Positions 1-64,000 of a stretch of 64,000 nt of DNA are shown here, piece after piece. Within the stretch, counting starts at the first letter, position 1, and each line of letters starts with the position of its first letter. This stretch comes from a virus, in the IMG/VR virus record IMGVR_UViG_3300046170_000274, positions 2,897 through 66,896 of that record; one strand, 5' to 3'. The position numbers and the translations under genes were made by a program. The notes under the pieces were generated by a model, which saw only the letters and a list, made by a program, of their open reading frames with translations, was not told the origin of the DNA and did not search any database.

Positions 1-339
1 ATACCGTTTAATAAAGATGAAGGCATCAGAGCCATAGCTGCTGATTCAGAAGAAGGTAAAGAAATTACAAAAGGTATATTAGATTTAGCAGATAGATCTA
101 GTGGAGAAAATATTGTTACACTTGCGGATCCTGTATTAGATGCCATTACAGCAATTAAAGCTTTAGAACCTATGGATGCTATGAAAGAAGCAAACTTAGT
201 TGCAGGTAAACAAGGTAAGTATGCAAACTTATCTGATGAACAAGGTAAACAAAATTATAGAAGATACTAACGATCATATCTTTGAAAGAGATCCTATCGA
301 ACCAGAAGACTTTGCAGAAGGTGGACGTGTTAATTTTAA
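1..339 (+). repeat. Wrap-around repeat block 1, copy A (copy B at 60637-60975)
   Basis: By-eye alignment: about 13 substitutions (about 8 synonymous) and 2 single-base indels in ~339 nt; identity ends after ggtggacgtgttaattttaa. Confidence 0.95.
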
Positions 340-1585
340 AGATGGTGGAAGAACAAATTTTTTTAAAGGAGCACAAGCAGATACTAAAAAAGGTAAATCT
401 ATGTCACCAGGAACTTCTGCTAAAGGAGTAGGTAGACAAGATAGAGATTCTCAATACACAGGTGGAGGATATGATTCTTCAAAAAATAAATCAGGAAGAA
501 CAACTACAACAAGCGGAGAAGGTGGAGGAAGTGGTTATACACCAACTTCAGAACCACAAAATATTGATAACAAATTAGTAGCCGAAACAGGTGTTATAGA
601 AAAACAATTAGAAAAAAAATTAAAAAGCTTAATACCAGCAGATTTAAATAAAGATGAAGAAGCTTTATTTCTTATGAACTTAAAAGAAAAATATTTTCCT
701 ACAAAAAGAATTAATGATCCATTTTTTAGAAATACTCAAATTAAAGACAAAGAAATTAATTTACTAGATACTAATCTTTTAGATTTTAAATTAAAACATC
801 CAAACATAAGTATTGAAAACGAATCAGGTTTTATTGATAGAGACAAACTAAAAACAGTAATTGATAATGCACAAATTGTTGGAGATGCATCTTTGTTAAA
901 TGACACATTACAGTTATCTAGAAATCTAGATACTATGGGATCAGGTATAACAGAAATTAATTATACTCCTAATGAGTATCTTAATTTAACCAGTTCTAAT
1001 GTTGAAGATAGAAACTATGATATTACAGGAAAACTTCCAATAGGTCCTTTTGATTTATCTACACAATTAAATTATATGGATAATGAACTTTTAAATAAAA
1101 CCGACAGAATTAATTACGATCAAGATGGTGTAAAAGGTTCTTATGTAGCCGATAAAGATTCTGTAAGACGTAATTTAGATTTAGATAAAAATTATAATAT
1201 AGGTAATTTTGATTTTAGTTTAAAAGGAGGATATGATGATGTTAAATATGATGACGGATATTCTAGATATAGTTCTACTTTAACTCCTAAAATATCTTAC
1301 TCTAATAATATTGGAGATGGCATATTTAAAACAAGTGTTGCAAAAGAACTAATAGAGGGAGGTCAAGTTCCCAATTTAAGTTTCTCTGGTTCTTATCCTG
1401 TAATGGGTGGAGAGCTCACAGGAAATTTTACTAATGTATTAAGTGATGACATGGGTAGTACCATAGGATATGATTATTCCAAAGGTTTACCAGGAAGTAA
1501 TAATTATTTAGAATTTAAAGCAAGAACAGATCCTTTTAACTTAAGAGACTCTGCTTTATTTTTTGGACTTAGAAAGGAAATTTAA
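1..1585 (+). CDS. Putative virion cargo protein A, allele 1 (5' part missing, indel near 243); C-terminal beta-strand-rich module
   Basis: Continuation of the gene starting at 59475; FAEGGRVNFKDGG motif followed by a ~400-aa allele-specific region. Confidence 0.7.
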
Positions 1586-1727
1586 TGGCTTACATATTTG
1601 ATCCAATACGAAACACATTTGTAGATGATGAAGATACAAGTCTTGGTAACAAACTTGCATTAAACGATAACGATGAGTTAGATAAAGCGATTAGACAGCT
1701 CGATGAGCAGTTTGGTCCAGGCACCGT
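1583..1727 (+). repeat. Wrap-around repeat block 2, copy A (copy B at 61915-62054)
   Basis: taatggcttacatatttgatcc...ttaaacgata near-identical in both copies, then gagcagtt(t/c)ggtccaggcaccgtg. Confidence 0.9.
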
Positions 1728-4700
1728 GCAGGAAGGTACAGAAGGTATACCAACCCCTCCTAAAACTATCGAGAGAGATATGTTTAAAAATGCGTTTAAA
1801 GAAAGCGCAGCAGATGGTGGTATGATTGGTGGTGGAACTATAGTCGGTCAAGATATGGGTAATAGAACTGGGTTTGTTGATCCCAAACTTATAATAGGTG
1901 GTTCAAGAACACCTCCACAGTTTAAAGGTATGTTTGGAGTAAGAACAAGTTTAACCGTTCCTGAAAATACACAAGGCTATTTAGGAATGAGTGGTGAACA
2001 GGCTGTATTTGCAACAGAAACAGATGCTCAAAGATTTATAGATGAGGACATACAAAAATTAAATAAAATTGCACAAGAAAATAAAAAAAGAAGTCCTGTT
2101 ATAGAAAAAAGATTAGAAGACATAAGAGAGTATGTTAAAAATTTAAAAGCTTCTGGATCAAAAAAAATATATTTAGATGATATCATAGATAACTTTATAG
2201 GTTCTAAAACTGTTTTTGGAACTGGTAGATATCAAGATGATCAAACAGAAATTAAATCAAGAGTTTCTATAAGAGATAATATTAGAGAAGCTTTAGGTGA
2301 TAAAGAATATAACAAGTTAGAAAAAGGACCTGGAGGAGATAGAAGAATTGTAGATGAGAAAAAAGTTAAATTTAATAAATTAGTACAAGACGTAAATAGA
2401 GGTGATTTACCTATATTAGAATTGGGATCTGAAGCAAGAGGAACAACAACTAATATTAAACAATATCTAACAGCTAATAATAAAAAAAGATTTGATAAGC
2501 TACTTTCTAAATTAAGAGCAATAAACTCTAGATTATCTCAACCACGATCTATTTATACCGATGCAGATCTTGATACAATTTCTAAAACTACTACAAAAAC
2601 ATTTAATAAAATGACAAAAGATTTTCCTAGCGCTATTGAGTCTAGAACTTTAGTATTTAAAGGTGGCACAAGATTTTATGATGCTAAAAGTTACGCTCTT
2701 GCTTTGATTGGAAGACATGTTGAACAAGGAGGTAAACTTTACAAACATGTGGGTGGTGACACTATGAAAGATGTAAAATTTAGAAACACAAAAACTAATA
2801 AATTAATTACTATTAGAAATATGGATTTAAATAGCCCAGAGTTTAAAGAAGTTACTAAAGTTTATAATGAATTTGAAAAATTAAAAAACAGTCAAATAGA
2901 TAATCCATTAACCGGTGAAAAAATTTCGCTTAACAATGCTATAAAAGAAGGTTCAGGTGGAAAAGATTATATAATAATAGATCATACAAAAGGTATTAAA
3001 AAAAGTCCTTTAAAAAATTTAATTATTACTACTCAAAAACAAAACATAGGTTTTGAATTAGCAGGATTAAGTGACCAAGATAAAAAAAGATTTTATAGAG
3101 AAAAAGTAGATTTTGATACTAACTTAGATAGATTTACTAAATATGGTCAAAGACTTTTAACAAAAGGTAATTACAAAAAACCTACAGAAACTGTTGAAGA
3201 ATCAAGATCATTATTAGATAAAATAAAAAGTGGCGCCTCATCTATTAAAAACAAAATGGATGCTACTAAAATGCTTTCGAGTAAAATACCCGGTGGAGCT
3301 ATTGCATTAACTCCTCTTGATTTTACAATGAGCATGGCTTCAGGAATGCCTTTAGCAGAATCATTAGCTAGTGCTGGATCTTATTTAATTAAAGATCCAT
3401 ACTTAGGAAGAGCTGTTAATGTGCCTTTAGCAATAGCACAAGATATGCAAGATCCAGAACAAGCTTTAGCAAAAGGAATTGAACGTGGAGAAAAAGCAGA
3501 AGCTTTCTTACAAGATTTAGTAAGTGGTTTAAAAGAAGGTGCCGGTGATCAACCTGATATAGATCCTTTTCAAGCAGCAGAAGGTGGCCGTGCAGGATAT
3601 AAAACAGGTGGTGGTGTAGAAATTACTCCAATGCCAAGAGTAGATTTCAATGGCGGTGGTGCAGTTGGTGCTGATGATGACTTTGCAAAAGAACTAGAAT
3701 ATTTTTTATTGAACCCAGAAGCTGAATTACCAAAAGCAGATAGCTACAGAGAAACCATGAACCCTGTTGCGTTATTAAATGACATGATCGATCCAAGAAA
3801 CTACGCATACTACGCAGATAGATTAGCAGAGACTGGTATTAGAGTTGGTGAGTTTGGTGCAAGAGTATTACCTGCACTTGGTCAGTTGACCGCGGATCTT
3901 ATACAAAGACCTGCGTTCAAAGTTACAGGCGGCACGGGTCAAGGTTATGTTCAAGACTACACAGATATAATGCCATCTAATATTAAAGGTACAGGAATCT
4001 TTACTGAGTTCTTAGATAACTTAGTTGGAACAGAAGGTACAAAAGTTATTACAGAAAAAACAGGATTAAAAAGTTTAATTGAATCTGAAGAACAAAAACA
4101 AAAAGATAGAAGATCAACTATTGGTCCTAAAGTATTAGCAGACCAAGTAACTCTTGGTGCAGAACTTACAGCACCTATATTTCCTGGTTTAAAATTATTA
4201 AAAGCTTATGCTAAAAATAGAAAGCTACCGGTTAATGATACGACAAAAGAAATTTTAAACAAAGAAATTGATGAAGTGTTATCAGCACAAAATTTAACAC
4301 GTAGAGATTTTTTAAAAGCAACAGGTGCAGGTGGTACAATTATTCTTGCTAAGATGTTAGGCTTTGGAGATGAACTTGCAACTACAACTAAGGTTGCAGA
4401 AAAAGTTGCAAAAGACACAGTAGGTGGAACTTACCCTCCTCCGTATTTTTTTAAACTAGTAGAAAAAATTAGATTTATGGGAGACGACATAACTGAAAAA
4501 GCTGCAACACAAGATAGACAAGTTGTTAAAAAATATAAAGATTATGAAATGAGTGAAGATGCTGCAACAGGAGAAATTACAATTTTAAAAAGAAATGAAG
4601 GATCTTTTTATGATCAAGATGGTATACTATCTGAAGAATATATAGTTTATAAACCAGGTATAGCTGATGAGACAACAAAAGGCACTCCTCCTCCTGAATA

Positions 4701-4824
4701 TGAAGAGTTTACATTAAGACCAGATGGTGAGGGTAAATTAAAAGATTCTGAAGATGGCCTAGATAGCATAGAAGAAATTTTAGAAGAAGTAGGTGACCCT
4801 GATTCTTTAACACTTAAAAAATGA
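1585..4824 (+). CDS. Putative virion cargo protein B, allele 1 (1079 aa), with central HNH-like module and internal twin-arginine-like motif
   Basis: Intact ORF; AADGG and AAEGG motifs; IIIDH...NLIITTQKQN; LTRRDFLKATGAGG. Confidence 0.7.
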   Translation: MAYIFDPIRNTFVDDEDTSLGNKLALNDNDELDKAIRQLDEQFGPGTVQEGTEGIPTPPKTIERDMFKNAFKESAADGGMIGGGTIVGQDMGNRTGFVDPKLIIGGSRTPPQFKGMFGVRTSLTVPENTQGYLGMSGEQAVFATETDAQRFIDEDIQKLNKIAQENKKRSPVIEKRLEDIREYVKNLKASGSKKIYLDDIIDNFIGSKTVFGTGRYQDDQTEIKSRVSIRDNIREALGDKEYNKLEKGPGGDRRIVDEKKVKFNKLVQDVNRGDLPILELGSEARGTTTNIKQYLTANNKKRFDKLLSKLRAINSRLSQPRSIYTDADLDTISKTTTKTFNKMTKDFPSAIESRTLVFKGGTRFYDAKSYALALIGRHVEQGGKLYKHVGGDTMKDVKFRNTKTNKLITIRNMDLNSPEFKEVTKVYNEFEKLKNSQIDNPLTGEKISLNNAIKEGSGGKDYIIIDHTKGIKKSPLKNLIITTQKQNIGFELAGLSDQDKKRFYREKVDFDTNLDRFTKYGQRLLTKGNYKKPTETVEESRSLLDKIKSGASSIKNKMDATKMLSSKIPGGAIALTPLDFTMSMASGMPLAESLASAGSYLIKDPYLGRAVNVPLAIAQDMQDPEQALAKGIERGEKAEAFLQDLVSGLKEGAGDQPDIDPFQAAEGGRAGYKTGGGVEITPMPRVDFNGGGAVGADDDFAKELEYFLLNPEAELPKADSYRETMNPVALLNDMIDPRNYAYYADRLAETGIRVGEFGARVLPALGQLTADLIQRPAFKVTGGTGQGYVQDYTDIMPSNIKGTGIFTEFLDNLVGTEGTKVITEKTGLKSLIESEEQKQKDRRSTIGPKVLADQVTLGAELTAPIFPGLKLLKAYAKNRKLPVNDTTKEILNKEIDEVLSAQNLTRRDFLKATGAGGTIILAKMLGFGDELATTTKVAEKVAKDTVGGTYPPPYFFKLVEKIRFMGDDITEKAATQDRQVVKKYKDYEMSEDAATGEITILKRNEGSFYDQDGILSEEYIVYKPGIADETTKGTPPPEYEEFTLRPDGEGKLKDSEDGLDSIEEILEEVGDPDSLTLKK

Positions 4825-4979
4825 AAAAATTAACTAAAACAATACCACCTAAAAGAGGTCCTAATCCACAGGGGTTGAATATTCCTCTAAAACAAGTTAA
4901 AGTGTCAAATACACAGGAGAAAATAAATGGCAGACATAGACAAGTCTTTACCAAACGTAAAGACATCAATAACGGTTGA
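4821..4979 (+). CDS. Small basic peptide (MKKLTKTIPPKRGPNPQGL...), 52 aa
   Basis: ATG overlaps the upstream stop (ATGA); manual translation; below ORF-track cutoff. Confidence 0.5.
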   Translation: MKKLTKTIPPKRGPNPQGLNIPLKQVKVSNTQEKINGRHRQVFTKRKDINNG

Positions 4980-7364
4980 TCCCGAAGAAGAAATAGAAAT
5001 TGCAGAACAGAAGGAAATAGAAGCTTCTGAAGAACCTGTAGAGGTTAACCCTCAAGAAGATGGTAGTGTAGAAATTAATTTTGATCCAAGCAAAGTAAAC
5101 ATTGAAGGTCAACAAGGACATTTTGATAACTTAGCAGAATTATTACCTGAAGATATTTTAGATCCAATAGGAAGTGAGTTAGTTGAAAACTATATGGACT
5201 ACAAAGCATCAAGAAAAGATTGGGAACAATCTTACACAACAGGTTTAGAATTACTTGGTTTTAAATATGAAAACAGATCAGAACCTTTTCAAGGAGCTAG
5301 TGGTGCAACTCACCCAGTTCTTAGCTGAAGCTGTTACACAGTTTCAAGCGGGAGCTTACAAAGAATTATTACCAGCAGAAGGACCTGTTAGAACTCAAAT
5401 AGTAGGTAACTCAGATCAAAATAAAGAAGCTCAAGCACAACGTGTTAAAGATTACATGAACTATGAGTTAATGGAAAAAATGAATGAGTATGAACCAGAG
5501 TTTGATCAAATGTTATTTCACTTACCATTAGCTGGATCTACATTTAAAAAAGTTTATTATGACGATTTACTAGGACGAGCTGTTTCAAAGTTTGTTCCAG
5601 CAGATGATTTAGTCGTTCCGTATTCTGCTACCTCATTAGAGGATGCGGAAGCGATTATTCAAACAATTAAAATATCAGAAAATGATTTACGTAAACAACA
5701 AGTAGCTGGTTTCTACAGTGACATTGAATTACAAAAACCACAAAGTATTTCAAAAGACGAAATAGAAAATAAAGAGAGAGAATTAGAAGGAACTAAAAAA
5801 ACAGGTAAGCAAGAAAATATTTATACTTTATTAGAATGTCATGTTAATTTAGATTTAGAAGGATTTGAAGATAAAGACCAAGAGTTAAATGAAACAGGAA
5901 TTAAGTTACCGTATATTGTAACTATTGATGAATCATCTAGACAAGTTTTATCTATCAGAAGAAACTTTGAACCAACAGACCCAAAGAAAAATAAAATACA
6001 ATATTTTGTACATTTTAAATTCTTACCAGGTTTAGGTTTTTATGGTTTTCGGTCTAATCCACATGATAGGTGGACTGTCTAGAACAGCGACCGCAGCTTT
6101 GAGACAGTTATTGGATGCGGGAACGTTATCTAATCTGCCAGCTGGATTTAAACAACGTGGAATAAGAGTTAGAGATGAAGCAGCACCATTACAACCAGGT
6201 GAATTTAGAGATGTAGATGCTCCAGGTGGTAATTTAAGAGATGCTTTTATGACTCTTCCTTACAAAGAGCCATCAGGAACGTTATTACAATTAATGGGAA
6301 TAGTTGTACAAGCTGGTCAGAGATTTGCAGCTATTGCTGATATGCAAGTGGGTGAGGGTAACCAAGGCGCTGCAGTAGGAACTACTGTTGCACTTCTTGA
6401 ACGTGGTTCACGTGTTATGTCTGCAATACATAAAAGATTATATTCAGGTATGAAACAAGAATTCAAATTATTATCTAAAGTATTCAAAACATATTTACCA
6501 CCTGTTTATCCTTTTGATGTAGTAGGTGGCAGAAGAGAAATTAAACAAATGGATTTTGATGACAAAGTAGATATTTTACCTGTTGCAGATCCAAACATTT
6601 TTTCTATGGCGCAAAGAATTTCTATGGCACAAACTGAATTGCAACTTGCAACATCACAGCCACAACTGCATAATTTATATGCAGCTTATAGAAAAATGTA
6701 TGAAGCATTGGGTATTAAAAATATTGATCAAATATTACCACCTCCTGCACCAGTTCAACCAATAGATCCAAGTTTAGAACACATAAATGCTTTGGGTGGA
6801 AAACCTTTTCAAGCTTTTCGTGGACAAGACCACACTGCACACATAACTGCACACTTAACTTTTATGTCAACTAATATGGTTAGAAATAATCCTGCTATTA
6901 TGGCATCAATTCAAAAAAATATTCTTGAACATATTAGTCTAATGGCACAAGAACAAGTAGAATTAGAGTTTGCAGAGCCATTACAACAAATGCAAATGCT
7001 TCAAATACAAGCTCAACAAGATCCACAAGCTAAACAACAGCTTCAACAGTTGTCAGAACAGATAGAAGCAAGAAAAGCAGTGTTAGTTGCAGAGCTAACA
7101 GGCGATTTTGCTAAAGAAGAAAAAGAAATTACGTCTCAATTTGACTCTGATCCACTTTTAAAACTAAAATCTAGAGAAGTTGATCTAAGAGCAATGGAAA
7201 ATGAACGTAAAAAAGAAGCTGATGAAGCAAAAGCTGACCTAGATAGAGCAAAATTAGTTCAAGCTAGAGAAATTTTTGACGATAAGCTTGAACAAAACCA
7301 AGATTTAGCAGAATTAAGAGCTGGAGTAAGTCTTGCAAAAAAAAATAATACTAATATAAATTAA
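4927..7364 (+). CDS. Portal protein (split by two apparent sequencing indels near 5320 and 6050)
   Basis: Three overlapping ORFs join into ~810 aa with portal-like motifs (EPFQGASGATHP, LPLAGSTFKKVYYD, FLPGLGFYG, LLDAGTLSNLP); lies between terL and capsid genes. Confidence 0.85.
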
Positions 7365-9061: not shown

Positions 9062-9286
9062 ATGCAATTAGAAACGGTAATCAATAAAACTTTAAGATTC
9101 CTAGATTCAAAAATAGAATCATTATCAATATCTGTAACGTCCGGTGGTGTTGACAATATGGAAAATTACAAGTATATAATAGGACAAATCAATGCACTGG
9201 AATCAGTGCGTCAGGAAATCTCTAACCTGCTAAACGATAAGGAGCACAATGAAGGAACAGTCATCGATATTAACACCAAACAATGA
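9062..9286 (+). CDS. Hypothetical protein
   Basis: ORF directly before groES; YKYIIGQINAL. Confidence 0.6.
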   Translation: MQLETVINKTLRFLDSKIESLSISVTSGGVDNMENYKYIIGQINALESVRQEISNLLNDKEHNEGTVIDINTKQ

Positions 9287-9656
9287 TCTTATTGGTGTAA
9301 AAAAATCAGAGAAAAAAGAAGAAGGAAAAATTCCTAAACCTACGGGTTGGAGAATAATGGTTTTACCTTTCAAGATGAAAGATAAAACTAAAGGTGGATT
9401 AGTATTAGCCGAAACTACTTTAGAAAAGCAACAAGTTGCTTCTCAATGTGGTTTGGTTTTAGCTATGGGCCCACAATGTTATAAGGATAAGGAGAGATAT
9501 CCTGAAGGCCCGTGGTGCAAGGTCAATGATTGGGTAATGTTTGCACGTTACGCCGGATCAAGGATCAAGATAGATGGTGGGGAAATTCGTCTGCTAAACG
9601 ACGATGAAGTGTTAGCAACAATCGATAGTCCAGAGGACATCTTGCATGAGTTCTAA
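9249..9656 (+). CDS. groES: Co-chaperonin GroES-like (Cpn10)
   Basis: PTGWRIMV...KTKGGLVL...VLAMGP...WVMFARYAG...LLNDDEVLA. Confidence 0.9.
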   Translation: MKEQSSILTPNNDLIGVKKSEKKEEGKIPKPTGWRIMVLPFKMKDKTKGGLVLAETTLEKQQVASQCGLVLAMGPQCYKDKERYPEGPWCKVNDWVMFARYAGSRIKIDGGEIRLLNDDEVLATIDSPEDILHEF

Positions 9657-19161: not shown

Positions 19162-19755
19162 ATGGGAACAATTAAAACAACAAACATAGAACCAATCGCG
19201 GACAACGGCACAGTAACCCTGGGTAGTTCTGGGGATACGTTTACGGTACCTTCAGGTGTAACTGTTAACATGTCTAGTGCAACACAGACAGGTGTTGGTG
19301 GAGCTAACACTCCAGCTTTTCTTGCATATTCAGCAAATGGTCAAGAACAATCAATATCAAACTCAACATCAACAAAATTAGATTTTGAAACTGAACTTTA
19401 TGATACAGATAATGCTTTTTCTTCAAATACAACATTTACCTGTCCATCAGGTCAGGCTGGAAAATATCAATTCACTGCAAATATTTCTTGGTACACTTCT
19501 TCATCTAGTAGTTTTGAAAGAGCATTTATAATGTTTTATAAAAATGGTTCTCAAATATCAAATTTTGAAAGAAGAGGAACAGATATTTATAGAGGAAGCT
19601 ACTCTCAACAATCTTTAAATAACACAATAGACGTAAATTGTGCTGTTGGAGATACTGTTGAAGTATATGGTTGGTTTGAAAGTATCACAGCCACATATGT
19701 GACTAGTAGTTATACAATGGCGAATTGGTTTAAAGGATTTAAATTAATTACATAG
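19162..19755 (+). CDS. C1q/TNF-like domain fibre protein 1b
   Basis: NTPAF...FETELYD...GKY...YKNG...GDTVEVY...FKGFKL. Confidence 0.7.
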   Translation: MGTIKTTNIEPIADNGTVTLGSSGDTFTVPSGVTVNMSSATQTGVGGANTPAFLAYSANGQEQSISNSTSTKLDFETELYDTDNAFSSNTTFTCPSGQAGKYQFTANISWYTSSSSSFERAFIMFYKNGSQISNFERRGTDIYRGSYSQQSLNNTIDVNCAVGDTVEVYGWFESITATYVTSSYTMANWFKGFKLIT

Positions 19756-19763
19756 GATAAATT

Positions 19764-20303
19764 ATGGCATCAATTATAAAAGCAAATCAACTACAGGACT
19801 TTGGCGGTAACAGCATTATAACGTCTGATGGTGCGGGGACTATTACTCTGTCTTCAGGAATGAATACAGCGGTTGCTGCAGGGACTAATAACACTCCAGC
19901 ATTTTCAGTAAAACAAAGTTCAGCACAAACTGGTATTGCAAATAATACTCAAACTATTGTTACATTTGATACAGAAGAATTTGATACAGATAATGCTTTT
20001 GCATCAAATAAATTTACAGTTCCAAGTGGAGAAGCTGGTAAATATTTTTTCTGTGCAACTCTTATATTCTTATCTTCTGCTGATTGGGAAGCTGGTTCTC
20101 TTGGTATATATAAAAATGGTACTATTTTAGATGTAGGATATGGTAGAAATTTTTATTATAATACTTGGAAAATTGCAACAGTAGCAGATTTAGCAGTAAG
20201 TGATTATATAGAATTAAAATGTTATCAAAACTCTGGTGGCTCTTTAAATTTAGGTGCTGGTAGAGATAATGTAAATTTTCAAGGATTTAAATTAATAGGA
20301 TAG
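19764..20303 (+). CDS. C1q/TNF-like domain fibre protein 1c
   Basis: NTPAF...FDTEEFD...GKY...YKNG...DYIEL...FQGFKL. Confidence 0.7.
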   Translation: MASIIKANQLQDFGGNSIITSDGAGTITLSSGMNTAVAAGTNNTPAFSVKQSSAQTGIANNTQTIVTFDTEEFDTDNAFASNKFTVPSGEAGKYFFCATLIFLSSADWEAGSLGIYKNGTILDVGYGRNFYYNTWKIATVADLAVSDYIELKCYQNSGGSLNLGAGRDNVNFQGFKLIG

Positions 20304-20306
20304 ATT

Positions 20307-20819
20307 ATGGCATTAAGTAAAATAGACGCGGTAAACTTTTTAACAGGTACAATACCTCAAGGTAACGTGGCCAATGCATCTTTGGGTGCGGTTACAGCTT
20401 TACCAGCAGGTGTAGGTGGTAAGGTTTTGCAATCTGTAACTGCAACAGATTCAGCAAATTATTCAGTAACATCAACTTCTTTTGTAAATAGTTCTAATGG
20501 TTTGACATTAAATATAACACCATCAGCAACTACAAGTAAAATTTTTGTACAAGTTTCAATAGCAAATCATTTTGCACCAAGTGGACAAAATTTTTTTATG
20601 ACTATTTATAGAGATTCAACTAATCTTGGTGGAGCAAATGGTATGAGTATTCATGGTGGTTTTAGTGAAGCAGTACCAGTTAGTATGAGTATATTAGATA
20701 GTCCATCATCTTCATCACAATTAACTTATCAAGTTTATTCAAGAGTTACTGGGGGTACTAGCGAATATGGAAGTTCTAGTTGTGTATCAACAATAACAGC
20801 ATTTGAGATAGGAGCATAA
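20307..20819 (+). CDS. Fibre-tip protein (paralog of 24090)
   Basis: GTIPQGNVANASLGA...GKVLQ...ITPS.T.SKI...LDSPSS...EIGA. Confidence 0.65.
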   Translation: MALSKIDAVNFLTGTIPQGNVANASLGAVTALPAGVGGKVLQSVTATDSANYSVTSTSFVNSSNGLTLNITPSATTSKIFVQVSIANHFAPSGQNFFMTIYRDSTNLGGANGMSIHGGFSEAVPVSMSILDSPSSSSQLTYQVYSRVTGGTSEYGSSSCVSTITAFEIGA

Positions 20820-20821
20820 TT

Positions 20822-21157
20822 GTGAGTAATGTAGTAAAAGCAATTTTAAAAATAAATCCAAACGCACAAGTAAGTGTAAAAAATGATGACGTTAATGAAA
20901 TCATTTGGGAAAATGGAACAACACCAATATCAAAAGAAGATATAGAAGCACAATTCCCAGCAGTTGAATTAGATACGGCTATGGCAGATTTAAGAGCTAA
21001 AAGAAATCAATTATTACAAGACACAGACTTTCATGCACTGTCTGACAATACAATGTCAGCAGATATGACTACTTACAGACAAGAATTGAGAGATATAACT
21101 AATGGAATAACAACAGTCGAACAAGCGAATGCTGTTGTATTTCCAACCAAACCATAA
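20822..21157 (+). CDS. Tail fibre assembly chaperone-like protein (paralog of 24595)
   Basis: AILKINPNA; LRAKRNQLL..TD...YRQELRDI...FPTKP. Confidence 0.7.
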   Translation: MSNVVKAILKINPNAQVSVKNDDVNEIIWENGTTPISKEDIEAQFPAVELDTAMADLRAKRNQLLQDTDFHALSDNTMSADMTTYRQELRDITNGITTVEQANAVVFPTKP

Positions 21158-21183
21158 TATAAGTACAACAAAGGAGAACAAAA

Positions 21184-21534
21184 ATGGCATCACTATCAAG
21201 CAAGATTAAAACTTACTGCGCTGACAACGGCGTAGCAGAAGTTGACTTTACGGTAGACGTTTTGCTTCAGGATGACTCAAACGGTCAGGGACCTTACATC
21301 AAGACATGGAATGTGTCAGGTGTAGCTCAACCTACTGCAGAGCAACTGAATGCTGTAGATTCTGCTGCAGATCTCGAAGAGAGACAAAATGCAGTTAGAG
21401 CTACAAGAAGAAACGCCTACGGTGATCTAGGTTCACAGTTAGACATGCAGTACCACGACAATGTTGATGGTACAACTACTTGGAAAGACCATGTAGAAGC
21501 TGTTAAGACTGCAAACCCGATCCCAACTGAATAA
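21184..21534 (+). CDS. XkdW-like fibre chaperone
   Basis: LQDDSNGQGPYI..WN...QPT; RRNAY...QLDMQYHD...WKDH...VK. Confidence 0.55.
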   Translation: MASLSSKIKTYCADNGVAEVDFTVDVLLQDDSNGQGPYIKTWNVSGVAQPTAEQLNAVDSAADLEERQNAVRATRRNAYGDLGSQLDMQYHDNVDGTTTWKDHVEAVKTANPIPTE

Positions 21535-21546
21535 GGAGATTAACAA

Positions 21547-22002
21547 TTGGCTTACGTTGGAAAAGCTCCTCAAACAGGAGCGTATCAAATTTTGGATGAC
21601 ATCTCATCGTCATTCACCGGATCAACACCAGGACCGTTTAACTTAACGGTTAACGGGACAGCTGTGTCTCCAGGTAACGAAGCTAATTGTATAATCTCTA
21701 TTTCAGGTGTAGTTCAAGATCCAGCAGCCTTTACAATAACAGGTTCACAGATTTCTTTTAGTTCAAACCCAGCTAGTTCTGATACTTTTTTTGGTACAGT
21801 TCTTGGTGATACATTTGACATTGGAACTCCAACAGACTCGACAGTAACAGCTGGTTCTTTGTCATCAACTTTTTTCGTGAAAAATTCACAAACATGGAGT
21901 AGTATATCAATGTCAGGTTCAAATAACGGAGCCTTGGTTGGACCCGTTACAGTTTCAGGGACGATCACTATACCATCAGGGAGTACATTCGTAATTTTAT
22001 AA
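21547..22002 (+). CDS. Tail-tip module 2 adaptor (paralog of 18119)
   Basis: YVGKAP...VVQDP..F...GPVTV..TITIPSGS. Confidence 0.6.
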   Translation: MAYVGKAPQTGAYQILDDISSSFTGSTPGPFNLTVNGTAVSPGNEANCIISISGVVQDPAAFTITGSQISFSSNPASSDTFFGTVLGDTFDIGTPTDSTVTAGSLSSTFFVKNSQTWSSISMSGSNNGALVGPVTVSGTITIPSGSTFVIL

Positions 22003-22607
22003 TGAGTAAACTAGAAACAAACACTATTGATACCGTATCAGGAACTTCGACATTACAAGTTGGAAGTACAAACACGTCTACTATTACTTTAGGTGTAAGT
22101 GGTGATACAATCAATGTACCATCAGGAGTAACGATTGCTAACTCTGGAACAGCAACAGGTTTTGGTGGTGCTAACACTCCAAATTTTTTTGTATATAAAA
22201 ATTCAAGTCAAACTATTAGTGATGCTACAGCTACAAAAATAACTTGGACATCAGAAGTTTTTGATACAGCTAGTGCTTTTGCATCAGATAAATTTACAGT
22301 ACCATCTGGTCAAGCTGGTAAATATCTTTTTAGTTTTGCTTCTCATACTTATGATGCAAGTGAAAAATTAACTCAATCTAATAAGGCTTTTTATAAAAAT
22401 GGATCACAAGTAGGTTCGTTAGATAGAACTGATGGTACTTATGAATTTGTCACAGATAATAGAGTTTATACTATATTATTAAATCTTTCTGTTGGAGATT
22501 ATATAGAAACCTATGTTTGGGGAAATACAACTGACAATTCATCATTCTCAGTTTATGGAGAGGGTCAATATTATACATACTTTCAAGGATTTAAAATTAT
22601 AGAATAA
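22002..22607 (+). CDS. C1q/TNF-like domain fibre protein 2a
   Basis: NTPNF...FTVPSGQAGKY...YKNG...GDYIETY...FQGFKI. Confidence 0.7.
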   Translation: MSKLETNTIDTVSGTSTLQVGSTNTSTITLGVSGDTINVPSGVTIANSGTATGFGGANTPNFFVYKNSSQTISDATATKITWTSEVFDTASAFASDKFTVPSGQAGKYLFSFASHTYDASEKLTQSNKAFYKNGSQVGSLDRTDGTYEFVTDNRVYTILLNLSVGDYIETYVWGNTTDNSSFSVYGEGQYYTYFQGFKIIE

Positions 22608-22619
22608 GGAAAATAAAAT

Positions 22620-23175
22620 ATGGCAGACGGAACATTAAAAGTAGGAACAATAACAACGAGCTCTGGATCAGGGACGATTACTCTTGGTCAATCTGGGGAT
22701 ACGATTACAGTACCATCAGGTGCAACTGTTGGCAGGAGCAATGGCTAACACTCCAGCTTTTCAAGCAACTTTATCTGGCAATCAAGATATAGCGGATAAT
22801 ACAACAGCTAAAGTTACTTTTGATACAGAAACCTTTGATTCTGATGGTACTTTTGCATCAAATAAATTTACTGCATCAATTGCTGGTAAATATTTAATTG
22901 TTGTTAAATTAACTTATTATGATGCTAGTGGAAATTTAAATGATACTTCTATGTCTTTATATAAAAATGGATCAGAATTTGAAACTTCAATAAAAAAAAG
23001 AGGTGGTGAAGATGTTGAAAGAGATATAATTGCTGTTTCAACAATTTTAAATTTAGCTGTAAATGATTATATAGAAGTATATGCTTATGGAAATACAGAT
23101 AATAGTGGTGCATATACTATTTTAGCAGCTACTAATGAAAGTCATTTTTCAGCATATAGGATTATAGGAGCATAA
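22620..23175 (+). CDS. C1q/TNF-like domain fibre protein 2b (indel near 22730)
   Basis: True start MADGTLKVGTITT at 22620 joins NTPAF...YKNG...DYIEVY. Confidence 0.65.
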
Positions 23176-41765: not shown

Positions 41766-43259
41766 ATGATAGAAAGATTTAAAAATATATTTTATGGATT
41801 AGACCGTGCACATGGTGTCACTTTAGTTGGTGAATCAAATGGTGACGGCAACAAGATCAAAGGTAAATCGTTTGTTAAACGAGAACCAGTCACAGATGAG
41901 TTGTGGCAAAAGCATTTAGATGGTGCTAACAGTTTAGGTATTATACCAATCAATGATGACAACAAATGTAAGTGGGGATGTATAGACATTGACTCATACG
42001 CAGAGTTTGATCACAAACAATTAATAAATAAAATAAAACAATTTCAATTACCATTAGTCGTATGTAGATCAAAGTCTGGTGGTGCTCATGTATTTTTATT
42101 TACAGAAGATTATGTATCAGCAGGTTTGATGCAAGATAAATTAAATGAGATTAGATCTGTATTAGGTTATGGTGGATCAGAAGTATTTCCAAAACAAAGA
42201 GAATTAAAATCAAAAGATGATACAGGAAACTTTTTAAATTTACCATACTTTAATTGTGGTCAGACAACAAGATATGCCTTTATGGAGGATGGCGAAGCTG
42301 CTAGTATAGATGCTTTTTTTGAACTCTACGAAAGACATAAACAACAAGACATTAGCAAGATAGAAATTAAAAGACCAGAGACACCATATTCTGATGGACC
42401 ACCATGTATAGAATTAATGGCACAAAATAAAATTGGTGAAGGTGGTAGAAATAATGCACTATTTCATTATGGTGTGTATGCAAAATCTAAATGGCCAGAC
42501 AATTGGAAAACAAAAGTAATGATCTTCAATGAGACTGCAATGCAGCAACCATTGTCAGATACAGAAGTACAAATAATTATAAAACAACATGATAAAAAAG
42601 AGTGGGGTTACAAATGTAATGACCAACCTATGTGTAGTTTGTGTGATAAAAAATTATGTAGGTCTAGAAAGTTTGGTATAGGTCAAGAGATAATATTTCC
42701 AAGTCTAACAGATTTACAAGTAGTTAACCTGGAAGAACCTTACTATTACATGAATGTAGATGGAGATAGATTGTATCTAGATTCAGCAAAACATTTAGCT
42801 AACCAAACTTTATTTCAAGAAGAATGTATAAAACAATTAAGAATAAATCCACCAACACTAAAGACAGGTGATTGGAAAAAAATTACTACTGTATTATTAA
42901 GTGGTGCAGAGATCACAGAACCTGCAGAAGGCACAAGTACAAAAGATATATTAAATAATTACCTAGAAGATTATTGTGTAAACAGAATACAAAAAGACGA
43001 TTACGAAGACTTACGTAATGGTGGTACTTATACTAAAGATGGCTTTCATCACTTTGTATTTGATAACTTCTTTAACAACTATCTATCAAGAAAACATTGG
43101 AGAGTTCCATATCAAAGAACATCACAGATGTTAAAAGATGATCTAAACTGTACAACTAAACGTGTAGGTAAAACAAAACTATCTGTGTTTGTTGTAGCTA
43201 GGTTTGATAAGAAAACAGAAACATACAAACCAAAAACATTTAAGAAAGAAAACTACTAA
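41766..43259 (+). CDS. AEP-type DNA primase with PriCT-like domain
   Basis: GCIDID, RSKSGGAH, GNFLNLPY, GGRNNALF, Cys cluster. Confidence 0.8.
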   Translation: MIERFKNIFYGLDRAHGVTLVGESNGDGNKIKGKSFVKREPVTDELWQKHLDGANSLGIIPINDDNKCKWGCIDIDSYAEFDHKQLINKIKQFQLPLVVCRSKSGGAHVFLFTEDYVSAGLMQDKLNEIRSVLGYGGSEVFPKQRELKSKDDTGNFLNLPYFNCGQTTRYAFMEDGEAASIDAFFELYERHKQQDISKIEIKRPETPYSDGPPCIELMAQNKIGEGGRNNALFHYGVYAKSKWPDNWKTKVMIFNETAMQQPLSDTEVQIIIKQHDKKEWGYKCNDQPMCSLCDKKLCRSRKFGIGQEIIFPSLTDLQVVNLEEPYYYMNVDGDRLYLDSAKHLANQTLFQEECIKQLRINPPTLKTGDWKKITTVLLSGAEITEPAEGTSTKDILNNYLEDYCVNRIQKDDYEDLRNGGTYTKDGFHHFVFDNFFNNYLSRKHWRVPYQRTSQMLKDDLNCTTKRVGKTKLSVFVVARFDKKTETYKPKTFKKENY

Positions 43260-57989: not shown

Positions 57990-59482
57990 ATGAATTTAAA
58001 TAACGTAGATATTAGTAAGCTACCTGCAGACGTCAGAAAGACATTCAAGAAACTGCAAGTCATGCATGCAGAAAAACAAATCCAAGGTAAAGCCAGAGAT
58101 GACTTCATGTCCTTTGTCAAATGTGTGTGGCCCGATTTTGTAGAAGGCTCGCACCACAGACACATAGCAAAAAAATTTAATCAACTTGCATCGGGAGAAA
58201 TAAACTCGACTGATAGTAAATATGCCTCCACGTCATACGAAATCAGAATTTGCAAGTTACTTGTTACCAGCGTGGATGGTGGGCCGTAACCCTAAGTTAA
58301 AAATAATCCAAGCAACTCACACAGGAGAACTAGCCGTACGATTTGGTCGTAAAGCTAAGACCTTGATTGATAGTGACGACTATGGAAAAATATTTGAAAC
58401 AAGACTAAGAGAAGATTCGCAAGCCGCTGGTAGGTGGGAAACAGCACAAGGTGGTGAGTATTTTGCAGCTGGTGTCGGCGGTGCAATAACCGGACGGGGT
58501 GCTGACCTATTAATAATTGATGACCCACATTCTGAGCAAGACGCAATGAGTCCGACTGCAATGGAGTCTGCTTATGAATGGTACACATCAGGACCAAGAC
58601 AACGTCTTCAACCTGGTGGTAAAATTATATTGGTAATGACAAGATGGTCTAACAAAGATCTTACAGGAAAATTAATTGCAAACCAAAAAGAAGCTAAAGC
58701 TGATCAGTGGCACGTGGTCTCTTTTCCAGCAATCATGGACCATGGATCAAAGAAAGCTAAACCAGTTTGGCCTGAGTACTGGAAGCTCGATGAATTAGAG
58801 AAAGTCCAAGCAACACTGCCCACGGGCAAATGGAATGCGCAGTGGATGCAAAACCCAACGTCTGATGAAGGTGCAATTATAAAACGTGAATGGTGGAGAG
58901 TGTGGAAGAATGATTGGATACCAGAACTGCATCATGTCATACAATCTTATGATACAGCATTTTTAAAAAAAGAAACTGCAGACTACTAGTGCTATTACTA
59001 CTTGGGGTGTATTTTACCCGGACCAAGACTCAGTGGTCCTAATTTAATTTTACTTGATGCTATAAAAGAACGGTTTGAGTTTCCTGAACTAAGGCGTAAG
59101 GCCTTTAGAGCAATATGAGTATTGGCAACCAGAATCAGTTATAGTTGAGGCTAAAGCTAGTGGTTTACCTCTAACTTATGAGCTTAGAAAGATGAATATA
59201 CCTGTAACTAATTTTACACCTAGTAAAGGAAATGATAAACATGCTAGGGTCAATTCTGTTGCACCTTTGTTTGAATCTGGTATGATATGGGCGCCTGAAC
59301 AAAAGTTTGCAGATGAAGTTATAGAGGAATGTGCAGGCTTTTCCATATGGTGACCATGATGACTTTAGTCGACTCTACGACTCAAGCTCTCATGCGCTTT
59401 AGACAAGGTGGTTTCGTACAACACCCAGAAGATTACTAGTGACGAACCTCTTAACCAACGTAAACGACAGTATTATGGATGA
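57990..59482 (+). CDS. terL: Terminase large subunit (several indels)
   Basis: MPPRHTKS (Walker A variant), LLIIDDPH, VMTRW, QSYDTAF, VEAKASG, FPYG.HDD.VD. Confidence 0.9.
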
Positions 59483-61917: not shown

Positions 61918-64000
61918 TGGCTTACATATTTGATCCGATACGTAACACATTTGTAGATGATGAAGATACAAGTCTTGGTAACAAACTTGCATTAAACGAT
62001 ACGTCAGAAGAAATCATTAAACAGATCGACGAGCAGTTCGGTCCAGGCACCGTGTTCCCTGCATCAGAGTTACCTCCCAAAGAAAACCCATACAAAGACT
62101 TTGAAGACAGAAACCCTGCAGCTAATGGTGGGATGATGAGACAGAACTTTGCAGATAATCCATTAAAAAATTTTAACTTTACAGTAGATAACATTCCTCC
62201 AGGATACGAATCTGTTTCTAAATTAGCAGAAAAATTAGGTGTAAGTTATGACTCATTAAAAAGTTATAAAGCATTACATGGAAGTGGTCAGTCCCCCACT
62301 TATGAAAGAATTTTAAATGTATTAGGAGATCCAATAAAAGTTACAGGATTTAAAGATACTTTTGGAGGAGGTGCTTCTCATATAGATTATTTTGATTTAT
62401 CGAAACTAAATGATGAGACTTTAAAAGCTATAAAGGAAAGAAAAGCAATGCCTGATAGAGGAGGTTCAGGCGTAAAAGTTTTAAGTAATAAAAATTTAAA
62501 ACAAAAATTTATTAAAGCTTACAATGATGGATATGGTGGAAGAGATATTATGTCTGTCATTGATCCTGATAACAAATTAAACGTTAATCAAGAAAAATAT
62601 GGTAGTGCAACTTTAACGGAGTTATTAAATAATGAACAAGTAAAACCTAGAAAAGAAGGTTTTATATCTAAAGGGCAAGAACTTTATTTTGAAAAAAATA
62701 GAATACCTATTGATAATCAAATAGTAAAAGTAAATTCTTTTTATAAACCAGGAATGAGTATAGAAAAAGTTACACAAAAACTATTTCCTAACTTTTCACC
62801 TATTATAGAATCAGATTCTTTTAATGTAAGACAAGAAAAAACAAATCAATTAAAAGAAGCTTCTAATAGAATAGTTGATTATAAAGCTTGGTTAAAAGGA
62901 GATAGACCAAGCAGTTCTATTTTAGATAAATTAACTTTACCTAATAACAAAAAACAAATTATAAAATATATTGAAGCTTCAACAGACTCAACATTTGGAA
63001 AATTTGCTAGCACTCAAGAAAGACGATACAAATACTATCAATTAGATAAACTAAATAATAAACCAATGGGTTATTACGACGGTTTAAATAAAAAAATATA
63101 TGCTGATTTTAAAAGACTAGGTTTAAATTATCAAATAGAACATGGTGGAAGTTTATCACAAAGTTTAAAAAAGAAAATTCCTTGGGTTTCTAAATTTGTA
63201 ACTTTTATGAAACCAAAATACAATAGACAAAAAATACCATTAGATATGGATACTGGTATTTTAAAAGCATATGATGTTTTAGAAGATAAAAAATTATCTA
63301 CAGAAGAAAAGAAAAATCACCCTGATGTTAAAAAACATAATAAGGCTGCAAAAGAATTTATGCAAAAAACAGGAACTAAAATACCTGTAATTTCATTTAA
63401 TGAAAAAGATGTTAATAAAATTATTGAAAGAGAAGATGTAGATAAACAAACAAAAACTCAAGTTAAAAATACATTTGATAAAAACGGTTGGACTTTAATT
63501 AACCCTGGAGATCAAATAGAAGAAGTCGTTAAAATAGTAAAAGATGCTGATAAACTTCCAAGCAATAGAAAACAATTAATTGTATCAGGTTTTAGAAATA
63601 AAATAGCTAATTTTTTTCAAGATGCACCTGTTCCAAAAGGAGTTAAACTTCCAATCGGTGCAACAGCTGCAGCATTAGACTTTGCAATCTTTAATGGTTT
63701 AATGGGAATGCCTGCACCAGAAGCGATGTTAGGTTCTTCTCAATGGTTGTTAAAAAATCCAGAAGCTGCTGAAAAAATAGGTAAGTCAATCAATCTTGTA
63801 ATTGAAGGTAAGATGACTGTAGATTCTTTCTTTAATAAAAACTCAGAAGAACTTGGTGGAGTGTTTAAAGATTTAGTTGGTATTGATATGCCGGATGCTT
63901 ACTCAAAAGATGATGAAGTTGGAAATCAAAGATTAAAAGAAATGGATAAAGCAATGGAAGTTCCCAATATGGATGAAACAACAGCCGCACCTTTATATGA
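61917..64000 (+). CDS. Putative virion cargo protein B, allele 2 (3' truncated), HTH plus HNH-like module
   Basis: Manually translated open frame to the window end; first 28 aa identical to the 1585 ORF; AANGGMMRQNF; SVSKLAEKLGVSYDSL; YQIEH...KYN. Confidence 0.8.
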   Translation, partial: MAYIFDPIRNTFVDDEDTSLGNKLALNDTSEEIIKQIDEQFGPGTVFPASELPPKENPYKDFEDRNPAANGGMMRQNFADNPLKNFNFTVDNIPPGYESVSKLAEKLGVSYDSLKSYKALHGSGQSPTYERILNVLGDPIKVTGFKDTFGGGASHIDYFDLSKLNDETLKAIKERKAMPDRGGSGVKVLSNKNLKQKFIKAYNDGYGGRDIMSVIDPDNKLNVNQEKYGSATLTELLNNEQVKPRKEGFISKGQELYFEKNRIPIDNQIVKVNSFYKPGMSIEKVTQKLFPNFSPIIESDSFNVRQEKTNQLKEASNRIVDYKAWLKGDRPSSSILDKLTLPNNKKQIIKYIEASTDSTFGKFASTQERRYKYYQLDKLNNKPMGYYDGLNKKIYADFKRLGLNYQIEHGGSLSQSLKKKIPWVSKFVTFMKPKYNRQKIPLDMDTGILKAYDVLEDKKLSTEEKKNHPDVKKHNKAAKEFMQKTGTKIPVISFNEKDVNKIIEREDVDKQTKTQVKNTFDKNGWTLINPGDQIEEVVKIVKDADKLPSNRKQLIVSGFRNKIANFFQDAPVPKGVKLPIGATAAALDFAIFNGLMGMPAPEAMLGSSQWLLKNPEAAEKIGKSINLVIEGKMTVDSFFNKNSEELGGVFKDLVGIDMPDAYSKDDEVGNQRLKEMDKAMEVPNMDETTAAPLY

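Follow-up and report, generated by a model that had tools for sequence, protein, structure and literature searches.

Our study reports on the modular architecture of gene B, a large gene between gene A and the portal gene in a 64,000-nucleotide stretch of viral DNA (the window; bases 2897-66896 of the 66,896-nt IMG/VR record IMGVR_UViG_3300046170_000274), which is a contig of an HTVC023P-type pelagiphage. By comparing the two alleles of gene B in the window with their relatives in other viral loci, we show that the middle of this gene is an interchangeable cassette, which related phages exchange by recombining within the constant flanks. The cassette of allele 1, which we call type C1, has a conserved core whose last part is probably a His-Me finger, as judged from residue conservation and a predicted fold; the cassette may be a nuclease that is carried in the phage particle. 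The presence of two alleles in one contig has a simple origin. The first 3235 bases of the record match its own bases 60631-63871 at 87.0% identity, and the contig therefore makes one turn round a genome of ~60.6 kb and then enters a second, related strain; another self-match, of 146 nt and 87% identity, lies at the start of gene B (repeats D1, D5, D7 and D9 of the window). Alleles 1 and 2 thus represent a single locus in two strains rather than a pair of genes from the same genome. Both are real variants, as independent contigs of several origins carry each type again at 95-100% identity.

The plan of gene B was obtained by mapping ten module queries on all retrieved proteins and on 78 related viral loci. 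A constant N module is followed by the cassette, a semi-conserved H segment and the constant T and Z modules (Table 1), and the mapping shows that these five parts reassort independently. Cassettes were typed in allele 1 and in the 47 open reading frames (ORFs) of the 78 loci in which an N and a T module were both matched; central regions were linked if at least half of the part preceding the H segment aligned at E<1e-5, a 50% coverage rule that replaced single linkage, which had chained unrelated cassettes via shared sub-modules. The 48 complete central regions fall into 15 mutually unalignable types. Seven of these occur in the 17 sequences, allele 1 included, whose T module is 88-100% identical to that of allele 1, and a single type is found on backbones that range from 39% to about 94% T identity to allele 1. 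The relatives P0153-P0157 illustrate the reassortment: their cassettes are 96-100% identical to that of allele 1, their N modules are of the allele-1 or the allele-2 kind, and identity falls to 63% in the H segment of two and to 47-53% in the Z module of two. P0004 has T and Z modules 89% and 93% identical to those of allele 1, yet a third kind of cassette, and a full-length twin of allele 2 (P0009, 1090 residues) is 99% identical to it over the cassette and carries a T module 90% identical to that of allele 1. In other phage lineages, shorter proteins hold a C1 or C2 cassette and an H segment between a GGR motif and a different C-terminus.

The boundaries of the cassette are equally sharp at the DNA level. 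Identity to close loci breaks off on the left at window position 1728 or 1826-1830 and returns on the right at 3240 or 3621-3645; the intervening DNA does not align. Contigs that nearly match the allele-1 cassette are present in two marine metagenome runs dating from different years, and their ends lie at 1831 or 1845 on the left and at 3431 on the right; one contig of run X5 spans exactly 1831-3431 (1601 nt, five differences from allele 1), and its end at 1831 is the left cassette boundary. These recurrent breakpoints, together with the many types on near-identical backbones, therefore establish the interchangeability that the first-pass annotation had proposed from two alleles, on a larger scale than it had seen. 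The locus helps to explain why such genomes assemble poorly. Two further kinds of metagenome data were set aside: summed contig depth is higher in flank bins than in cassette bins, but contig depth cannot rank the parts of a gene, and a 211-nt contig inside the cassette (1952-2162) in RNA run X15 is no proof of transcription.

A short motif, A-[DEN]-G-G-R/M-x-[GN]-[FY], stands at each of the module junctions observed in gene A and gene B, and the limits first drawn around the cassette region, 1807 and 3600, coincide with two of these A-x-G-G motifs (residues 75-82 and 664-672). In its strict form, A-[DEN]-G-G-R-x-x-[FY], the pattern occurs 22 times, in 21 of the 47 ORFs: eight occurrences lie at residues 69-74, 14 within 18 residues of the start of the T module and none elsewhere. 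It misses looser variants, among them AANGGMM of allele 2 and AIGGRVGF of P0009. Gene A, which precedes gene B, has a constant N-terminal part (~90% identical among loci) and a C-terminal part that is variable or absent (window 340-1585 and 61000-61917). Repeat D5 (243-339 against 60879-60975, 98% identical) stops at the gene A motif, and in loci L027, L030 and L031 gene A ends there, with the variable part absent. Contigs of runs X1 and X5 join window 321-339 straight to 1578-1586, which means that forms lacking the gene A variable part exist in those samples. In locus L016 a gene B cassette of the allele-1 type is accompanied by a gene A variable part unlike that of the window, so that in this one case the variable parts of the two genes are not tightly linked. 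The junction motif may serve as a site of proteolytic cleavage or as a docking peptide, or it may simply be conserved as DNA at which crossovers are favoured.

Table 1. Modules and motifs of gene B and gene A, with positions in the window.
Feature	Position	Strand	Basis or remark
Gene B allele 1, 1079 residues	1585..4824	+	ORF between gene A and portal gene
Constant N module, residues 1-74, acidic	1585..1806	+	62% identical to allele 2 over residues 1-81
Left junction motif AADGGMIG, residues 75-82	1807..1830	+	Similarity between alleles stops here
Variable cassette, type C1, residues 83-552	1831..3240	+	Unalignable with allele 2; one of 15 types
Conserved alpha+beta core of C1 cassette, residues 367-490, ending in His-Me-like element	2683..3054	+	AlphaFold, conservation
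Predicted beta-beta-alpha element IIIDH...LIITT-QKQNIGF with D466, H467, N478, N487	2971..3054	+	Model and conservation
H segment, semi-conserved, moderately hydrophobic, residues 560-660	3262..3564	+	28% identical to allele 2
Right junction motif AAEGGRAGY, residues 664-672	3574..3600	+	DNA identity to close loci returns at 3621-3645
Constant T module, residues 673-902	3601..4290	+	88-96% identical in 16 loci with 7 cassette types
Internal twin-arginine-signal-like motif RRDFLKATGAGG, residues 903-925, at T/Z junction	4291..4359	+	Pfam TAT_signal, E 0.002
Constant acidic Z domain, residues 926-1079	4360..4821	+	Most widespread part of the family, in many architectures
Gene B allele 2, first 694 residues, cut by contig end, cassette type C2	61917..63998	+	ORF
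Allele-2 candidate motif YQIEHGGS...KPKYN, residues 405-436	63129..63224	+	E408, H409, N436 invariant, 16/16
Allele-2 H segment, residues 575-640	63639..63836	+	BLASTP to allele 1; hydropathy maximum 1.41
Gene A junction motif AEGGRVNF	314..337	+	Two gene A alleles diverge right after

A full HMMER scan of 1.84 billion representatives retrieved 683 relatives of gene B at E<=1e-3, and no part of the protein is shared nearly as widely as its C-terminal 400 residues. The Z domain matches no Pfam family, a PHROGs search with both alleles and 37 family members gave no annotated family, and a tblastn search with allele 1 against 50,697 phage records found no match at E<=1e-3; despite this null, the product gp42 of Pelagibacter phage HTVC027P is a gene B relative by more sensitive comparison. 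The N module, which contains DNA repeats D7 and D9 and has a net charge of -9 over residues 1-80, also occurs in relatives with other cassettes. The H segment of relatives is 33-100% identical to that of allele 1 and reassorts apart from the cassette, for example in P0155 and P0156. That the two alleles share a hydrophobic segment behind the cassette had been noticed at the outset, and the homology is borne out by BLASTP (28% identity over 130 columns, E 2e-4). The hydrophobicity is moderate only: the Kyte-Doolittle maxima over 19 residues are 1.04 in allele 1 and 1.41 in allele 2, values below the usual transmembrane threshold, and we therefore do not take the H segments as membrane helices. 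The lysine-rich character ascribed to both middles also holds, as residues 301-560 contain 14.6% lysine in allele 1 and 16.5% in allele 2, with a net charge of +20 in each.

About 900 residues into the gene B protein stands a stretch, RRDFLKATGAGGTIILAKMLG (window 4291-4359), that resembles a twin-arginine translocation (Tat) signal. Pfam TAT_signal matches it in eight of nine cassette representatives, one of them just above the cut-off, and this Tat-like motif is the only Pfam domain in the nine. In a profile search of the PDB with the T and Z region, the sole matches were the Tat signals of hydrogenases and formate dehydrogenase, at weak E-values of 0.16-3.3. For a Tat signal in the interior of a protein to make sense, cleavage of that protein would be needed, unless the motif has another use.

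The first-pass annotation had assigned a His-Me finger signature to IIIDHTKGIKKSPLKNLIITTQKQN of allele 1 (residues 463-487, nt 2971-3045) and had described the cassette as an HNH-like nuclease; the strings it quoted are all present in the ORF translations where it had placed them. We aligned residues 300-560 with 36 selected homologues, near-identical sequences such as P0153-P0157 being dropped (alignment A1). At a mean column identity of 27%, only 11 columns are invariant among the 37 sequences, and these include D466, H467 and N487; N478 is mostly conserved, and R378, H379, G383 and G384 are nearly invariant. The AlphaFold2 model of residues 300-560, computed with this alignment, has a mean predicted local distance difference test (pLDDT) of 88.2 and a predicted template modelling score (pTM) of 0.77. 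It places a strand at 463-467 ending in the Asp-His pair, a second strand at 479-483 and a helix at 484-490 that bears N487, with the motif blocks at pLDDT 90-96. The model thus has the features by which His-Me fingers are recognised, namely a predicted beta-beta-alpha topology, D-H at the end of the first strand and a helix Asn ~20 residues downstream. Of the points on which the annotation had staked its reading, a beta-beta-alpha fold is predicted for allele 1 (pLDDT ~90 over the motif), and His and Asn are conserved among homologous cassettes (37/37 for allele 1, 16/16 for allele 2). The spacing of His, Asn at +11 and Asn at +20 is that of I-HmuI, T4 endonuclease VII and the Cas9 HNH domain.

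A possible link of this element to a known family comes from the homologue in HTVC027P. The C1 core is homologous to residues 317-452 of gp42 (hmmsearch E 1.9e-11, BLASTP E 5e-7), and in gp42, P0038 and P0027, all at ~24% identity to the C1 core, the D-H pair and the N are aligned and kept. A six-frame search of the HTVC027P genome with Pfam HNH_3 gave a single match, to gp42 residues 428-453 (LEVDHFDKVKNNPFSNLRVIPARINR; E 0.0017, 14.7 bits), and the residues matched are the very ones that align with the motif of the window. The likeness of C1 to HNH_3 or I-HmuI-type endonucleases (PF13392) lies in the D-H at a strand end, the second strand, the helix Asn 20 residues after the His and the lack of zinc-binding cysteines, to which comes the pick-up of the homologous gp42 motif by PF13392. 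The differences are that the window protein has no match near the curated cut-off, that no counterpart of core residues 367-462 was found, and that the C1 motif sits in the middle of a 1079-residue protein and not in a small free-standing or intron-borne enzyme.

Several results weigh against reading C1 as a nuclease. The HNH_3 match on gp42 lies under the Pfam cut-off of 24.8 bits; HNH_3, HNH and HNH_5 found nothing at E<=10 in six-frame searches of the record to which the window belongs, and HNH_3 did not match any of three further contigs whose cassettes are of C1 type. No HNH family came out of Pfam scans of the two alleles and 37 members, and a profile search of all PDB sequences returned no nuclease. 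Foldseek with the allele-1 model found no PDB entry at E<=0.001, a retron HNH nuclease standing at rank 8 with an E-value of 4.1, and none at that level in BFVD. Among the 50 best BFVD rows, 11 bear the name HNH or homing endonuclease, all at E 0.19-0.86 and individually insignificant, a count to be read against the frequency of that name in the whole library. In one homologue, P0075, HH replaces DH. The wide search with VIA-align, an exhaustive structural aligner, matched residues 1-49 of the model only and hence gives no information on the core; the ESM Atlas had no usable match for residues 300-560. The His-Me signature proposed for allele 1 is thus upheld by the invariance of D466, H467 and N487 and by the modelled topology, and left without a match to a curated profile or a solved structure; taking both sides together, we regard the motif as probably a His-Me finger.

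The same cannot be said of allele 2, for which a comparable motif and a helix-turn-helix (HTH) had been proposed. Its candidate motif locally resembles a cysteine-less HNH motif and is invariant at the residues listed in Table 1, within a shallow alignment (A2) of allele 2 and 15 of the 24 homologues matched. The allele-2 model has a mean pLDDT of 54, falling to ~25 over residues 400-446, where no structure is predicted; no HNH profile matches the motif in the Pfam scan or, for HNH and HNH_5, in six frames, and Foldseek with this low-confidence model found nothing at E<=0.001. The ESM Atlas returned only unnamed viral clusters for residues 330-570 of P0009, at a score of 0.80. No homology between cassettes 1 and 2 is detectable by hhalign on trimmed alignments (probability 0.8%), the trimming having been introduced because untrimmed A1 and A2 recovered only the shared C-terminal half. 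For the proposed HTH, SVSKLAEKLGVSYDSLKSY (residues 98-116, nt ~62208), there are two predicted helices at residues 100-119, in a medium-confidence stretch of the model, and no Pfam match; HTVC027P gp42 has a weak HTH_23/HTH_7 match at a similar distance from its N end. A nuclease function for the allele-2 motif is consequently doubtful, and allele 2 appears from its sequence as another cassette, whose activity neither profile nor fold assigns. The 13 other cassette types likewise show no similarity to the C1 core (probability <=12%). Since neither they nor allele 2 resemble that core, the label of HNH-like nuclease does not apply to the cassettes in general. A regular expression for [DE]H...N does match several of the other types and was not counted as evidence.

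Where the product of gene B might act is suggested by its position and by analogy. Gene B is encoded inside the portal-terminase head module, as are polyvalent proteins and packaged effectors. Polyvalent proteins and MuF- or portal-fused effectors are described by Iyer et al. 2017 (PMC5512222) as large, multidomain and mosaic, encoded beside portal-terminase genes and proposed to be cargo that is co-injected with DNA and serves in early conflict with the host, and the same article gives T4 Alt as cargo that enters the host with the DNA. Gene B resembles the polyvalent proteins, in so far as that article describes them, in its multidomain make-up, its place near the portal and terminase genes and its mosaicism. 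It differs from them in that neither a defining domain nor MuF is present (MuF, ArdC-N, relaxase-linked and similar domains have no Pfam match in both alleles, 37 members and nine cassette representatives) and in that its variable part is internal, bracketed by short motifs and flanked by constant ends. This internal position is also at variance with the layout of a polymorphic toxin, and no immunity gene lies directly downstream of the variable part, in agreement with what had first been noted: the 102 nt before the portal gene hold no plausible small ORF.

A second analogy is provided by the internal proteins of T4, in which an N-terminal capsid-targeting sequence precedes highly polymorphic cargo. 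Gene B shares with them, and with Alt, a short conserved N-terminal part followed by polymorphic cargo, a likeness that suggests a maturation cleavage site at the junction motif; the gene B product is, by contrast, ten times larger, has a conserved C-terminal half and comes with no recognised protease. A third parallel is found in the related lake phage DSL-LC04 (OR003939.1), where a single gene of 825 residues (L005:3401-5878) with a PcfJ domain (PF14284, E 5.2e-9) lies between TerL and a portal gene whose product is 46% identical to that of the window. This gene holds the same position as gene B and starts with several x-G-G motifs; it differs in having PcfJ instead of a C1 or C2 cassette, and it lacks T and Z modules.

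Gene B is a modular gene with an exchangeable cassette. We tentatively propose that C1 is a His-Me nuclease, borne in the particle and acting on DNA early in infection, a model that may hold but that we put forward with clear reserve. If gene B is comparable to polyvalent proteins, T4 internal proteins and MuF-fused effectors, the constant ends, N (residues 1-74) and T plus Z (residues 673-1079), would load the protein into the capsid, and the basic cassette would travel into the cell alongside the DNA, where its early target could be the DNA of the host or a phage that competes with it. Many alternative cassettes would be maintained in the population by diversifying selection. Residue conservation, the predicted topology and the sub-threshold profile match in a homologue are the reasons for regarding C1 as a putative divergent, metal-dependent nuclease or nickase of HNH_3 type, in which D466 and H467 may serve as base and ligand and N487 as a metal ligand. 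Three observations count against this model as a whole. No proteomic data that place the gene B product in virions were found in the literature consulted; a head protease was looked for and none was recognised; and most cassette types have no recognisable catalytic motif, so that, if all cassettes share one function, it may be other than enzymatic.

In the strongest of the alternatives, the cassettes are non-catalytic modules of a structural or ejected protein that bind DNA, the capsid interior or host factors, and the DH...N residues are a relic with a structural or DNA-binding role. Their diversity would then reflect escape from host defences that sense the protein, or adaptation to host strains. 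Such a reading accommodates the failure of any curated HNH profile or solved nuclease to match the protein of the window itself, the 13 types that have neither similarity to the C1 core nor a Pfam domain, the two alleles that are unrelated yet equally basic, and the H in place of D in P0075. It does not readily explain why D, H and N are strictly invariant on a beta-beta-alpha element down to ~24% identity, or why HNH_3 picks out the homologous motif of gp42. We consider it rather unlikely, while granting it more weight than any of the readings that follow.

A homing origin, which the first-pass annotation had also entertained, would make C1 a selfish element whose nuclease cuts gene B alleles with other cassettes during co-infection, perhaps at the DNA that encodes the junctions, after which repair would copy the cassette in with the N and T modules as homology arms. 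Such a process would fit the spread of the same cassette type over backbones from 39% to 96% T identity and the sharp, recurrent breakpoints in conserved flanks. The motif spacing resembles that of HNH_3 homing enzymes, and there are weak hints of DNA binding below cut-off (HTH_23 in HTVC027P gp42, E 0.014; AP2 in P0019, E 0.0048). Homing endonuclease genes are built differently, however: here the motif lies in frame within an ORF of 1079 residues and is neither free-standing nor borne by an intron or intein, and Pfam finds no intein or Hint family in the gene B alleles. All 48 complete relatives carry some cassette, no empty gene B target site was seen, and cassettes without the motif are exchanged equally often. 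We judge this origin improbable.

It is more improbable still that genes A and B together form a cargo chassis, in which the N module would target the prohead, A-x-G-G-R sites would be cleaved during maturation, the cassette would be set free as a DNA-bound effector, of which at least 15 interchangeable kinds would exist, one of them a new branch of His-Me nucleases, and a C-terminal fragment starting with the Tat-like motif would go to the host Tat system after injection. A role of the HNH-like domain as an accessory of terminase packaging, comparable to the small HNH proteins that aid cos cleavage in HK97-like phages, appears very improbable. It would suit the place of gene B between TerL and the portal gene; HNH genes are known to occur next to terminase genes, and a 2026 Skunavirus study reportedly deals with a terminase-adjacent HNH gene. 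The domain is, however, embedded in a 1079-residue mosaic protein, and six further cassette types, none of them similar to the C1 core, occur together with T modules and flanking DNA that are almost the same, a dispensability not expected of an essential packaging partner; an HNH-like core that is not kept among close relatives (T module 88-96% identical) is also unlike HK97 gp74. Both the homing and the packaging readings are weakened because cassettes without the motif swap in the same way on the same backbones.

An assembly artefact, suggested by the merging of two strains in the contig and by frameshifts, absent from closer relatives or from other runs, in the genes for the portal and TerL and in gene A, is refuted for the cassettes themselves by the independent recurrence of both types at 95-100% and by the near letter-for-letter presence of the allele-1 cassette in runs of different years, and only the juxtaposition of the two alleles in one record is artefactual.

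The portal protein of the window is 70% identical to that of HTVC027P and 54% to that of HTVC023P, and the order TerL, gene A, gene B and portal is common to the window, HTVC027P (gp40-gp43), 023Pt_psg01 and locus L007; in HTVC027P the counterpart of gene B is gp42, between gp41 and the portal gp43. The portal gene of the window (4927-7364) is broken into three overlapping ORFs, and TerL and gene A (57990-58989; 1-1585) are also split; L007, 96% identical, has an intact portal of 811 residues. Metagenome contigs are one base shorter at window 242, and some of them also at 5323. Single-base errors in the record are the probable cause. A phage co-chaperonin GroES gene (phrog_3188; 9249-9656) lies between portal and capsid, and a protein of 497 residues (41766-43259) contains an AEP-type primase domain (Pfam AEP-TOTE, E 2.6e-15). 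At 19384-22977 there are three to four diverged direct repeats (D2, D4, D8 and D10), 68-83% identical, in consecutive ORFs of ~180-200 residues, an arrangement that suggests tandem paralogues encoding tail or fibre-like proteins.

Hypervariable genomic islands are known from marine phage populations, where they have been related to constant-diversity dynamics (Mizuno et al. 2014, as cited in PMC6487183). The gene B locus resembles the islands as that article presents them, being an under-recruiting, population-variable region of an abundant pelagiphage; it differs in that it belongs to HTVC023P-type phages, lies within one reading frame and has junction motifs at the protein level. The many cassettes on near-identical backbones fit the constant-diversity dynamics outlined there (PMC6487183). 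Hypervariable islands and head-module proteins of the polyvalent type are thus already known kinds; an in-frame cassette between repeated junction motifs, the number of its types and a His-Me-like domain at this place appear to be new. No description of the locus was found in the text of the HTVC023P-type genome literature, the supplements of which may hold more, and according to the same literature very few structural proteins of this phage group have an assigned function.

A sharply bounded hypervariable island within one reading frame is the pattern expected at the front line of conflict between phage and host or between phages. If the allele-1 cassette is indeed an active nuclease carried in the particle, gene B would represent a new delivery architecture for a His-Me enzyme, in a phage group that is very abundant in the ocean and of which cultured relatives, HTVC027P and HTVC023P, exist.

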